A stretch of DNA of 64,000 nt from Eledone cirrhosa. Its lineage: Eukaryota. Every line of letters begins with the position of its first letter. Position 1 is the stretch's first letter. Below the pieces are notes generated by a model. It had not been told where the DNA came from and did not search any database. It was given only the letters and a program-made list of their open reading frames with translations. The stretch spans positions 3,844,001 to 3,908,000 of the forward strand of contig OZ024756.1 of the NCBI GenBank assembly GCA_964016885.1, given 5' to 3'. Position numbers and translations under genes: made by a program. Of this stretch, positions 5,557 to 63,290 are shown one piece after another.

Positions 5557-5899
5557 TGAACAACACAAAATATAACTACTCCATTACCAAAGGTTTCTGG
5601 ATCTCAGACAATGATAATATACGTCTGGATCGGTCGTCAGACAGAGATGTGGTGGATAAGAATTATGAAATGAGATTGAAAATCTGTTAAAAATTGACTA
5701 CCAATTTTAACAGGTTTTCAATCTCATTTCATATTTTTTATCCATAACATCTCTGACGACCGATCCAGACGTATATTATCATTGTCTGAGATCCAGAAAC
5801 CTTTGGTAATGGAGTAATTATATTTTGTGTTGTTCACTTTCTAATTGAATAGCTCTGTTCTATACATAGAGCACTCTTTTTTCCTTTGAATTACCTAAT
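5557..5899. mobile_element. PLE-like fold-back, about 140-bp arms plus 3' tail
   Basis: Arms 5557-5696 and 5702-5836, each carrying a hammerhead core; tail stem-loop at 5852-5872; (TA)n on both sides. Confidence 0.8.
5579..5646 (-). ncRNA. Type I hammerhead ribozyme
   Basis: ctctgt-CTGACGA-stemII-GAAA-cctttg-GTA-atggag; the plus-arm copy (core 5753-5759) has lost 4 nt of stem I. Confidence 0.7.
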
Positions 5900-6044
5900 A
5901 TATATGTATATATATATATATATATATATATATAGTGATTGTGACGTCCAGTTACCTAGGTTTCCAGTAGAACCGTCCTTAATTCCTTATCTTCAAATAT
6001 TACCCCCTTCATTTATTTGTACTGTCTCTGTTATTGAATTTTAG

Positions 6045-6097
6045 TTCCTGTCTGATGACCCTGTGAGAAACAGGCGAAACTCCAGAGTAAGAAGACT
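6045..6097 (+). ncRNA. Type I hammerhead ribozyme (weak stem I)
   Basis: CTGATGA 6052-6058, cctgt/acagg, GAAA 6076-6079, actc-ca-gagt-A, AATAAA at 6112. Confidence 0.65.
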
Positions 6098-6157
6098 CAA
6101 TAATTAGCCTGAATAAAAATTACTATATATGTATGTATATATGTATATATATATATA

Positions 6158-6319
6158 CAAGTAAAATTCCGTTTTAACGAATACCATTATAATGAATTTT
6201 TCAGCATGACGAAATTCTTTTGAATTCCCTGCCACATGCTCAATGTTTTATAAAGAATTTTTTGTTACAACGAATTATTTTTATACCCCCGTGAATTTCG
6301 TTATAATGGAATTTCACTA
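6158..6319. mobile_element. Tigger/pogo-like MITE
   Basis: Imperfect TIRs agtaaaattccgttttaacgaa and ttcgttataatggaatttcact with TA flanks. Confidence 0.6.
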
Positions 6320-6584
6320 TGTTGTGTGTGTGTGTGTGTATATATATATATAAATAATGTGTGTGTGTGTATGTCGATTTGTGTGTTTATGAACAGTTAT
6401 AATCAACCCAAGAAATGCAGCATTTTCATCAGGTATATTTTGAGAAAACAAGATGGAGAATAGATTTTGGCACCAAGCCGCTAAATGCCTCCATTGGTTG
6501 GTTCGAGTCACGTGGAGGTGTTGAGCTGTCATCAGTACTAGCAATTTTGCGTCCTTTTGGCGCCATTAATCATTCTAGAATACA

Positions 6585-7087
6585 TACGAGTGTTGGCTGA
6601 AATGTTGATAGGCTGACCAAGATACTCTCATGGAATGACCAAATGAGGTTTATCTTTCAACATAGTCCCTGGAAAGAAACAATGCAGCTATTAATTGTTT
6701 CTACTTTTGGCACAAGGCCAACAATTACCCAGTGCATTACTGGTACTTTATTTTATCGACCTAGTAAGGATGAAAGGCAAAGTTAACCTCGGCGGGATTT
6801 GAATTCAGACCGAGGTGAATGTCGCCTTTCATCCTTACGGATTAATTAGAAGAGTTGAAATTAATTTATAATTAATTTATACAAGATTTCACATCTCTAG
6901 CATCACTCCTTCATAGGCTGCCCAAGATACTCTCATGGAATGACCAAATGAGGTTTATTTTTCAACATAATCCCGGAAAGAAAGATTGTGATTATAAATA
7001 AGAGTTGAAATTAATGCATACAAGATTTCACAGCCCTAGTATCACTCCTTCATACTCGGTCTATGAAGCTTTCAGCCGACTTTCATA
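6585..7087. mobile_element. Non-autonomous mariner-like element with internal duplication and nested SINE
   Basis: TIR tacgagtgttggctgaaatgttgataggctga versus reverse complement of tcggtctatgaagctttcagccgactttcata; block ccaagatactctcatggaatgaccaaatgagg occurs twice. Confidence 0.65.
6693..6810 (-). mobile_element. Meta-domain SINE, partial
   Basis: Reverse complement of ctttgcctttcatcctta..gtcgataaaataaagtaccag. Confidence 0.8.
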
Positions 7088-7186
7088 TATTTCCACTAAG
7101 CTGCTATGCGGTAAAGATGATTAATAATTTATTTATTTATTGCAGGAAATTATTATGCGTTCAATTTAATTATACAAAATATGTAT

Positions 7187-7410
7187 AAAATAGCAGCGGG
7201 TTTTATGGGACTAAAAATTAGCTAATATATAGAGCCGAGAATATTATTTATAGAGTTATAAACTCAAATAGTGTATTACACGGATCAGAAGTATTCCTTT
7301 CTTTGAGCTATTTAATTGTAAAAGACTATTTGAGTTTATAACTCTATATATAATATTCTCGGCTCCATACGTGAGCTAATTTTTAGTCCCATAAAACCGG
7401 CTGCTATTTT
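7187..7410. repeat. Inverted repeat with about 85-bp arms (MITE-like)
   Basis: 7187-7272 is the reverse complement of 7325-7410. Confidence 0.8.
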
Positions 7411-7771
7411 TAGCGGCACGAGTATAGGACGAGCTAGGCGCTGGAACACATGTGCGCTCAAAAACACATTTTTCTTAGTCTTCTTAAGTATTTTGAAGTG
7501 AAACTTACCAATTTCTGGATACCTGCAGAAGAGCACAGGAATGGGAACTTTCACTTAATTGTTGCGAAACAAATTTAAAATTTGTCCAGGTATCACGGCT
7601 ATTGCCAATATAGGTTTATTTTTATTGATTTATTATTTTAAATCGAGACAGGCAAACCGTATTATTTTAATTAGTAATTTTCAATCTAGCTAACTTGGTC
7701 ATTTGCAATGCGAACACATGTATACTTGTATCAGTGTTTATCCCTATCATATATTCATTTGTATATTTATT

Positions 7772-60300: not shown

Positions 60301-60478
60301 TTGGCAGTATCGGTAGAGCGTCAGACACCTTGCTTTTCAGCATAGAGTTATGGCTCTTTACGTTCTGGGTTCAAATCCACCGAGGTTAACTTTGCCTTTC
60401 ATCCTTATGGGGTCGATGAAATAAAGTACCAGTCACGCACTGGGATAATGGCTGGCCTTGTGCCAAAAGAAGAAACAT
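60301..60478 (+). mobile_element. Meta-domain SINE
   Basis: Family match. Confidence 0.85.
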
Positions 60479-61736
60479 TATATATATATATATATATATA
60501 TGTGTGTGTGTATATATATATATATATGTGTATATATATATATATATATATGTGTGTGTGTATATATATATATATATGTGTATATATATATATATATATA
60601 TATATATATGTAGTCATTGTATATATTATTCAGTTCTTCCAGTAAATATGAAACTAGCTTACAAAATAAAATTAAAGTCCATGTCAGACTTACTAGAAAT
60701 AACAGTCAAGGTACTCTCAAATCACACACTTCCTTTAAAAACCAAAAACAAAACAAAACAAAAGACAAACGGACGGATCAAACTGGATAATAGATCCCAA
60801 AGAAAATGGCGTCCATGATTGCAATGTCTTCATCCAGCGTTGACCTAAACAGGAATAACAACAACAATAACAAGAACAGCCTTCATTGTTTTGTGTTTTA
60901 CTCTGTATATTGTATATATATTATCTTTTCAGAGTTCCGCTACAATTCTCACTGTTCTTCACTCCTCCTCCACCTTCATATATACACATTCCTCCCCCAC
61001 CTTCTGTTGCCCCCCCCCTCCATATTATCTTAAATATATACACGTTAATATTCTTTACGCTGCTCACTCAATCTTCAGCTTATTTTATTCGACCGCATAA
61101 TTAGTGTAGGTTATTTTAGTAAGACTTGGTTCAATGCAATTTTTTTGTTTTGCTTCATTAAATTGATGGTCTCTGGTCGTATTGGTTACATTTTCTTGTA
61201 CTTACTGGTGCTGATAACGATGGCAATGATGATGATGATGATGGTGGTGGTGGTGGTGGTGATGATGGCGATGGTGGTGATGGTGGTGATGATGATGGCG
61301 GTGCCGAGAAGGATTTAGATCTTGAGTTGTTGTTTTTTTTTTTTCCTTATCTTTACAGCCTGTTGCTGAATGTTATTTGAAATAACAGTAAAAAATGTTT
61401 TGTGATTGTATGTTCACATATACATTTACATCTAACACACACACACACACACACACACACACACACACACACACACACACACACACACACACACACACAC
61501 ACACACACACACATATATATACACATATTTATGTATGTGTATATATACGTAGATATTAAATTTAAGAGCACAAGTTTATACATACATATATATATGTATT
61601 TATATATGCATATTCCAAGAAACACACGCACATGCCTACAGGGAGGGCTTTCTGTGTGAAATTTGACGCATGGAGTCCTCAATCTTCAAACTTATTTCTA
61701 CACATTTGTGGCGTTTCAATGATCATTATCGATGAA

Positions 61737-61955
61737 GGCGATGAATTGAGTATCGATAGAGCGTCGGACAACTTTCTTTGCGTCATATAGTTACGTCCCA
61801 TTACATTCTGAATTCAAATCCCGTCGTGGTTAGCTTTGACTTTCATCCGTACATGCTCGTTAAAGTAAAATACCAGTAACGCACTGGGGTTGATTTAATC
61901 GACTTTCTCCCCCACCCCCAAGAAATTATTGGTCTTCTTCCTAAAACCATCATTA
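61737..61955 (+). mobile_element. Meta-domain SINE, diverged
   Basis: Family match. Confidence 0.7.
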
Positions 61956-62395
61956 TTATTATTATTATTAATGTTATCTTTAATAATGGGAAAACAGTAG
62001 GTATAATGTTCCCTTTCACTTTACTCATTGTAAACCCTACTCTTATTTTTTCGGTCTTGTATTCCCCCCTCCAAAATCATGGGACATTGTGACTAATAAA
62101 AAAAATCATAATCGATGGTGGAGATTGATCGATTTTTGATATAACATCTCTCTAGTTTTACGGTAACCATTAACGATGGTATCCTGACGTATTTGCTCTT
62201 GAGCGGGGCAGTTTTATTATGCCCCCACTTGCATCCTGGTTCCATCTAACTGCATGCCACCTTGCACCAGTGTCTTCTATAATATTCTTCGGACAACCTA
62301 AGTCTTGTGGTTAGAATACTACAGAGCAAGACATCTCTGGTGCCCATATAATATACACACGCACACACACATCTCTAACCAACCTATATATATAT

Positions 62396-62565
62396 AGGGA
62401 GCCCTACATGGACACACTAGAAGAGGAAGACCAAGGTTAACGTATGTTGATGCCCTAAGGACAGACACTGGTCTATTGGAGACGCAGGACATGGCAGCGA
62501 TAATGAGGGACAGAGACCGCTGGAGAGAACTCGTCCATGGATCTCGGGAATTTTACCCGCCTTAG
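62396..62565 (+). mobile_element. 5'-truncated RTE LINE 3' end
   Basis: Near-identical to about 8628-8797. Confidence 0.85.
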
Positions 62566-62854
62566 AAATAGAAAGAAAAAAAAAAATATATATATGAATA
62601 AATTTAGTCCTTCATCAGTGATCTTCCAACCTTCATTGGTATTTCATCGCTTTAAAGACCATATACCTCCGGTTGGTGCGAGCAACGGCTAAAGAAAGCC
62701 TTTGGGACACGTAAATAGGGGGAACGAGCGAGACAGTAAAGAATATATATATATAAAACATAAATTTAAATAATATTGAAAACCAAATAAAACGATAAAA
62801 AGAAAATTAAATCGCTAAGATAACAAAAGAATCTTTCCTTAGCAAATTTAATGA

Positions 62855-62894
62855 TCCCTAATATTTTCGGGTTTAAAAACCCATTATCATGGGA
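62855..62894 (-). ncRNA. Minimal hammerhead, A3/A8 core (probably decayed U3-A8)
   Basis: tccc-ATGATAA-t-gggttt/aaaccc-GAA-AATATT-A-ggga; decayed inverted copy at 62962-62990 (TTTATAA). Confidence 0.6.
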
Positions 62895-63103
62895 GTAACC
62901 ACACGAGTCTTAAAAATCAATCGGAGTTGACTTGCTTGTTTGGAGAGCAGATTTAAGTTAATTTATAATGGGTTTGTAAACCCGAAAAATGTTTGTGATA
63001 ATTTAATTTTCTAGCACTGTTATATATATATATATATATATATATATATATATATATATATATATATATATATATATATATATATATATATATAATTTTA
63101 TAT

Positions 63104-63290
63104 CATGTTTAATAGAAATGGCTTCTACATGACTAGAATTGTTTCATTAAAAAGAAATCCCTCATAATTTCGTTTGAATGAAACGATTCTAGTCATGTAG
63201 ATGCCATTCCTATATGAAACATCTTTACACTCTACTAATGTATTGAGTACCTTACTAACTGTGGTTACCCCGAATCGAACTCGGGAATCA
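63104..63290 (+). mobile_element. PLE-like fold-back remnant (family of 8876)
   Basis: Hairpin 63104-63222, tail stem-loop 63229-63248. Confidence 0.65.

Follow-up and report, generated by a model that had tools for sequence, protein, structure and literature searches.

What fixes the ends of a mobile element whose copies fold back on themselves? The question is raised by a 64,000-nt stretch of the 3.0-Gb genome of Eledone cirrhosa (contig OZ024756.1, positions 3,844,001-3,908,000, forward strand; hereafter, the window), which is AT-rich, crowded with (TA)n and carries fold-backs of eight families (A, A', B, C, D, E, F and G), recovered through masked self-comparison. An earlier, sequence-only reading assigned them to Penelope-like elements (PLEs) and proposed that a conserved stem-loop (RCTC..GAGY in what follows) positions the reverse transcriptase (RT) for priming at an internal site, so that one arm ends there and the other arm alone carries a tail. 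Our analysis revealed that copies stop sharply, 0-7 nt short of either of two RCTC..GAGY motifs that are homologous to each other, with the two arms of an inverted insertion typically using one site each. This observation is real and well above chance.

Judging from their coding capacity, the fold-backs are indeed ends of PLEs. The PLE origin is borne out by open reading frames (ORFs) encoding an RT together with a GIY-YIG domain at the C-terminus, and 4 of the 8 families (C, D, E and G) are linked to ORFs of the Hydra clade; no ORF was linked to families A, B and F. The family C ORF (loci L083-L110) contains an RT with YRDD and a C-terminal VIY..YIG (GIY-YIG) endonuclease (EN), and family E retains intact frames of 709 aa; in families D and G, only the N-terminal part was examined. 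The marks of the Hydra clade, as described by Craig et al. 2021 (PMC8557442), include an RWK-like motif, a DKT sequence, a CxCX5C linker, the lack of CCHH in the EN, and CxxC plus CxH. All four ORF-linked families share RWR or RWI near the N-terminus and the change from DKG to DKT (as SDKT), and families C and E display the linker, the EN without CCHH, and CxxC and CxH near the end. The insertion preference for (TA)n, a feature of this clade, is present as well, as are the partial tandems and the inverted truncated pseudo-long terminal repeat (pLTR) with a one-sided tail that characterize EN-containing (EN+) PLEs. Given that a Pfam search with two family C ORF fragments produced no matches at E 0.1, the EN+ PLE assignment rests on motifs. 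Predicted hammerhead cores (CTGANGA..GAAA or variants) were found upstream of the internal site in families B, C, D, E, G and A, 65-105 nt 5' of the internal junction, and an Rfam scan of the window gave no matches at the gathering threshold, the hammerhead cores included. The resulting order of the element is hammerhead core, internal site, first motif copy (SL1), tail, tail-end site, second motif copy (SL2) and ATG. The clade is very abundant in this genome, with 8814 first-look candidates genome-wide for a 78-aa Hydra-clade N-terminus.

The window was complemented by three samples: 30 family A loci from a DNA search, which are biased to tailed fold-backs and were excluded from pair counts; 30 loci and 60 stretches of ten kb surrounding the first 100 exact matches, out of 963, to a core pattern without the junction itself; and 200 kb adjoining the window. 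All samples merged amount to 1.15 Mb. Families were also detected de novo, with 255 candidates reduced to 107 by filters and grouped into 31 clusters, from which 30 families, 18 of them single copies, were tested.

The coordinates of the sequence-only reading proved accurate, in that RCTC begins where claimed in 8/8 window cases and, in each of these, one arm stops before the motif and the other is tailed. Its spacing of 3-16 nt between arm end and motif holds as a near-constant distance, but the cases of 13-16 nt come from damaged copies or were measured before the shared TA. Strictly measured, the distances for 7 pairs in the window are -1, 2, 5, 6, 7, 7 and 15 nt, and the family F copy at 46355 has its junction 5 nt from the motif without microhomology. 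Family-wide, the modal junctions are shorter, at 4 nt before GCTC in family B (the copy at 5557) and 2 nt in family E (45451), so that the long distances in the window can be attributed to damage. Two sharp junction peaks per family, which the same reading had put forward as a check, were both found, at the internal site and at the tail end. Among 135 family C copies with a body, 45/63 internal ends fall on one nucleotide and 61/72 downstream ends coincide with the tail end; family E copies end at the internal nucleotide in 20/45 cases and at the tail end in 14/45; and family A shows two subfamily internal peaks (43/246 and 29/246) in addition to a tail peak. An assembly artefact was ruled out, because the arms differ by substitutions and the junctions recur across many contigs.

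The proposed pairing with a TA-rich patch is supported as well: at internal junctions, 2-7 nt of TA are common to the element and the (TA)n target. Such microhomology reaches at least 3 nt in 19/30 de novo families, compared to 10% expected for random cuts (p 2e-12), and a paired RCTC..GAGY motif follows the start of the microhomology by 5-10 nt in 12/30 families, compared to a mean of 0.63 (maximum 3) for other 6-nt windows. In 10 of those 12 families, the microhomology has its upstream edge 7-8 nt from the motif. Well-sampled sites delimit ranges before the motif in which the start must fall, namely (in nt) (6-8] in A, (-1-5] in A', (4-6] in B, (5-8] and (3-6] in C, (7-14] and (6-8] in D, (2-6] and (3-6] in E, and (2-7] and (3-9] in G. 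The start thus falls 5-8 nt before the motif, a register that takes more than one value. The claim of a fixed distance to the motif survives as near-constant spacing, which recurs at the tail end in families C, D, E and G, a place where the sequence-only reading had not noticed the motif, but not as a single distance.

If the motif sets the starts, the tail end should have a motif too, visible only where the element continues. This is the case in 4/4 ORF-linked families (C, E, G and D), where SL2, a second RCTC..GAGY copy, lies just past the tail end and is followed by the ATG. In family C, SL2 is present in the single tandem (1/1), whereas in family E, it is intact in 25/30 ORF-start loci, with 4 point-changed and 1 truncated. 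The 3' strand of SL2 occurs in 18/18 distinct family G loci, although the search pattern did not contain it, and a motif-blind pattern search in family D yielded an intact copy in 6/8 loci printed. Of 4 metagenome contigs that include the 5' end of a related ORF, 3 also carry the motif upstream of it, one of them twice; these contigs show no junctions. Two further loci touch on the motif. At L105:1590-1720, the predicted fold lets the SL1 5' strand pair with the SL2 3' strand, as an alternative to two local hairpins. At L025:1665-1790 and L059, a family A body is joined to a family C tail; the changeover falls within the SL1 common to both, which is suggestive of template switching or recombination at the motif.

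The two kinds of ends are combined in a strikingly regular manner. Both ends could be classed in 115 of 133 inverted pairs (the 18 with an unclassed end were dropped), and these 115 comprise 103 internal/tail, 9 internal/internal and 3 tail/tail pairs, compared to a maximum of 50% mixed pairs if ends were independent (p 2e-19); several of the 9 internal/internal pairs resemble decayed tails. The proportion is similar (89/101) in the five families for which the references were independent of the pairs classified. Long copies of family E were drawn from 60 ORF-start loci, 29 of them from the best 30 and 31 others from the 150 listed, with 20 of the latter chosen for long frames. In 24 full-length insertions of this set, both the main and the inverted end were classed, and 23/24 have one end of each kind (16 with an internal-ended long arm and a tail-ended inverted arm, 7 the reverse, and 1 tail/tail), with the caveat that a few ends were re-classed by eye and some inverted arms located several hundred nt away possibly represent separate events. 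Hence, the notion that the tail is confined to one arm stands, but the inverted truncated copy is not always the tail-less one: the long arm ends internally in 16/24 insertions and at the tail in 8/24, so that either arm can be long. Snap-back of the tailed arm was ruled out for the 16/24 family E insertions in which the internal-ended arm is the longer and so is no copy of the tailed one. The copy at 46665(-), which had been described as solo, was found to have a tail-only partner on the + strand and so obeys the one-of-each rule; the segment 46712-47147 matches an element copy elsewhere. Genuinely unpaired internal-ended copies do exist, for example, at 46241. Partner arms are more alike than non-partners in families C (p 4e-6), A (p 1e-4) and G (p 0.03), without significance in E, as expected for arms derived from one source RNA, although later conversion could produce the same pattern.

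We propose that each motif probably represents an RNA docking hairpin that holds the RT in such a way that nicked (TA)n pairs with the adjacent TA and cDNA starts there, with the hairpin setting the start position. Under this proposal, SL1 and SL2 would each hold an RT, the nicked (TA)n end would pair with the 2-7 nt of TA just 5' of the motif, and cDNA would begin at a distance of about 5-8 nt from the stem. On a single RNA, two RT active sites (probably a dimer) bound to SL1 and SL2 would prime both broken target ends at once, and the two cDNAs, joined head to head, would yield an inverted insertion with a tail on one side only. The "tail" would then be simply the RNA between the two start sites.

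The hairpin itself is predicted from conservation. Over 29 motif sites, the outer pair is G-C in 18, A-T in 8, G-T in 2 and mismatched in 1, whereas the next two, unselected positions show a mismatch (paired in 7/29) and then an R-U pair in 22/29, 13 of these G-U; RCY follows the motif 3' strand. Because these sites are mutually related, because pairs 0-3 were partly selected by the regular expression, and because folding does not exceed that of shuffled sequences (z -0.4 to -1.35 for five regions), the hairpin rests on conservation only. The predicted helix spans just 4 bp, and its core pair probability is below 0.3 at 10/29 sites; these properties of the motif weigh against the docking proposal, and so do several observations on its distribution. 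Two pattern searches for SL2 in family A were negative, one with 12 heterogeneous matches, compared to 2 in the control, and the other with no continuation common to its 18 loci, and 0/30 family B loci continue past the tail, no dedicated SL2 search having been made there; both families nevertheless produce tailed arms. No strict motif is present at +5..+10 in 18/30 de novo families, and no one register suits all sites, given that A' requires at most 5 nt and D at least 8. The start site of the Poseidon PLE of Anolis (PAc) is reported to be non-homologous to the cut DNA (PMC11167929). Finally, an abundant family (loci L368-L371) with a CxxC-type linker and a VVY..C..C..YIG endonuclease, Neptune/Nematis-like by the features given in PMC8557442, has sharp TA-microhomology ends, both in the same ATAT-CG context, and 6/8 of its classed pairs are one-of-each without RCTC..GAGY, so that the pairing rule needs no such motif. 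Twin starts therefore look PLE-wide, and the motif clade-specific. The ORF of this family includes an asparagine-rich low-complexity insert, as described for rotifer Penelope.

Other mechanisms could place the ends beside the motif. The motif might mark a cut, with the RNA, or a DNA intermediate attacked by the GIY-YIG endonuclease, cleaved just 5' of each hairpin and end-priming or resolution following. In PMC8557442, the tail is ascribed to EN-mediated resolution, the Drosophila virilis EN is cited in PMC11167929 as requiring the tail for recognition, and the 5' ends of ORF-bearing family E copies fall in the tail-end window in 18/43 cases and in the internal window in 7/43 (17 longer copies dropped). 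Yet a cut at the internal site would block tailed arms from reading into the body, which they do in most short pairs (5/22 inverted tailed arms stop within 7 nt of the site); the one-of-each pairing and the similarity of partner arms would call for two coordinated RNAs; the long internal-ended arms (16/24) are not derivable by cutting a shorter tailed arm; and PAc starts internally on unprocessed RNA in vitro (PMC11167929). We consider cleavage unlikely for these reasons. Alternatively, the hairpin could be a binding site for ribonucleoprotein assembly only, with synthesis starting wherever the nearest TA patch anneals the (TA)n primer, with no ruler involved. The register spread of 5-8 nt would suit such a loose arrangement, as would the minor junctions at other TA patches (about 10-15 nt upstream in family A and at 0 nt in 4 arms of family B), but 3' ends are hardly ever placed at the longer TA runs within the tail and arms of family E, and the upstream edge of the microhomology is confined to 7-8 nt in most families with the motif in range, so that we regard this option as quite improbable.

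Ends could also be inherited, if read-through transcripts ending in the (UA)n of the flank annealed to the target and reproduced the end of the source copy. This might explain the tail ends of families A and B, which have no visible SL2 and in which (CA)n tracts that vary in length often separate tail end and (TA)n (24/41 in A and 12/23 in B, compared to 1/14 in D; e.g., L342, L362 and L029). Inheritance cannot, however, yield an internal and a tail end in the same insertion, nor account for SL2 at constant spacing past the tail end in four families; it is largely refuted already for C, D, E and G, and overall very unlikely. Telomerase-like reiteration was entertained as the source of (CA)n and dropped, there being no age trend in family A (rho 0.06) and the family D template also reading ACAU, yet with (CA)n in only 1/14.

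Docking of the RT at the two hairpins can be extended, tentatively and with considerable doubt, to a programmed form of twin priming, in which an RT dimer on the two hairpins of one, possibly circular, RNA would make measured starts through telomerase-like short pairing, and each cDNA would tend to end at a point where one had begun. If true, unit-length copies, tail-only arms and partial tandems would all result from one mechanism. Among full-length E copies, the 5' end lies at the tail-end site in 9/13 tail-ended compared to 5/30 internal-ended copies (Fisher p 0.0014, after removal of 17 loci that have no 3' end). The arms of L246 jointly cover one unit exactly once. Location of the 5' ends of tail-ended copies at the tail site suggests a circle or terminal redundancy; a promoter near the tail site or subfamily structure could contribute to this association, and an internal promoter is known in D. 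virilis Penelope (PMC2377424). In A, C and E, the 5' ends of short arms precede the internal site by about 50-75 nt, and no pile-up at the predicted hammerhead cut was seen among short arms. If the RNA begins at these 5' ends, short symmetric fold-backs would result from twin starts on the 5' pLTR, which contains both hairpins. Short arms of A, C, E and G have clustered 5' ends at the hammerhead core or stem II.

Table. PLE-derived features in the window (positions counted from its first nucleotide).
Feature	Positions	Strand	Remarks
Family E fold-back	5360..5522	-	tail split by tRNA-like insert; remaining tail 5065-5125(-)
Family B fold-back	5553..5898	+	inverted arm; forward arm with hammerhead core 5753-5800, SL1 5852-5874, tail to 5898
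Family A' fold-back	8876..9057	+	SL1 8998-9018; tail
Family C pair (Hydra-clade, young, ORF-linked)	20550..22406	-	internal-ended arm 21972-22406 (inverted); tailed arm 20550-21965 (long), containing the ORF end and 3' untranslated region, hammerhead-like core 20731-20665, SL1 20621-20596
Family D fold-back	29653..29938	+	hammerhead core 29750-29797; SL1 29857-29883; tail
Family D, second copy	39482..39739	+	tailed
Family E tailed copy	41220..41330	-	truncated just 5' of internal site
Family E fold-back	45451..45665	+	hammerhead core 45510-45534; SL1 45582-45629; tail
Family E short copy	46241..46304	-	ends at internal site; no partner seen
Family F fold-back	46355..46584	+	ACTC at 46452 without clear 3' partner; 138-nt tail; single copy in data
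G-related inverted pair	46665..47221	both	internal-ended arm (-) 46665-~47147; tail-only arm (+) ~47148-47221
Family G fold-back	48445..48774	-	SL1 48527-48507; tail to 48445
A-related fold-back	59300..59448	-	SL1 59339-59318; absent from sequence-only reading
Family A fold-back	63104..63289	+	SL1 63229-63250; tail

In the sole copy of family F, no GAGY partner accompanies the motif within 75 nt. Other PLE-like families contribute additional hammerhead-core copies at 6052-6080 and 20272-20367, one of which includes a short palindrome. Fragments of long interspersed nuclear element (LINE)-type RTs lie within (TA)n-rich tracts at 31200-33650 and 24101-24827, and tandem minisatellite arrays occupy 15327-16987, where the period is about 62 nt, and 54653-55629.

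The origin of the inverted ends and one-sided tails of PLEs is named as an open problem in PMC8557442, and the later integration steps are left unvalidated in PMC11167929. Internal priming, put forward as new by the sequence-only reading, had already been shown in vitro for PAc, and the broad idea of two starts is likewise published (PMC11167929). By contrast, the twin motif, its register, the microhomology and the pairing rule appear to be new: a literature search, with figures S1-S2 of PMC11167929 and the supplements of PMC8557442 outside its scope, did not find the twin motif, register or pairing rule described, and the text supplements of PMC11167929 gave no match either. A duplicated cis motif with measurable spacing, together with a 90% one-of-each rule, makes PLE end formation directly testable, bears on how telomerase-related RTs pick an internal start on their own RNA, and gives annotators of (TA)n-rich genomes a rule by which to place PLE ends.

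Among known systems, L1 twin priming likewise involves both target ends priming on one RNA and results in an inversion, but there the landing site of the second primer varies and the arms are free of overlap, whereas the insertions described here use two fixed sites and have overlapping arms. The closest parallel is PAc (Frangieh et al. 2024, PMC11167929), in which two internal RT starts bracket the genomic tail in vitro, targets are AT-rich, a hammerhead lies upstream, and both strands are nicked and extended by what is predicted to be a dimer, a precedent for the twin starts proposed here. The PAc starts lie, however, inside an AC-rich stem-loop 111-118 nt into the ORF, whereas both sites described here precede the ATG, each located 5' of its own motif copy with 2-7 nt of TA microhomology, and the tails are 57-138 nt long, compared to 30-40 in PAc. 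Members of the Hydra clade (PMC8557442) share (TA)n targets and the inverted truncated copy with a one-sided tail, and have hammerheads, of which predicted cores occur here; the sections of PMC8557442 consulted describe no end motif or pairing rule, and the elements here, at about 3.2-3.8 kb, exceed the size called typical there ("<3 kb"). Penelope of Adineta vaga likewise has head-to-head inverted pLTRs, palindromic centres and an optional one-sided tail, which Arkhipova et al. 2013 (PMC3846280) ascribe to self-priming on an antisense template; the arm-length and pairing counts obtained here fit two separately primed cDNAs better. As for telomerase, a related RT, its RNA also places a cis element beside a short primer-pairing stretch (PMC5855555). 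The likeness to a template boundary element drawn by the sequence-only reading has the wrong polarity, because that element sits 5' of the template and stops synthesis, whereas the motif is 3' of the junction and absent from the arm ending there. It thus occupies the side of the start on which the template recognition element of Tetrahymena is found (PMC5855555).

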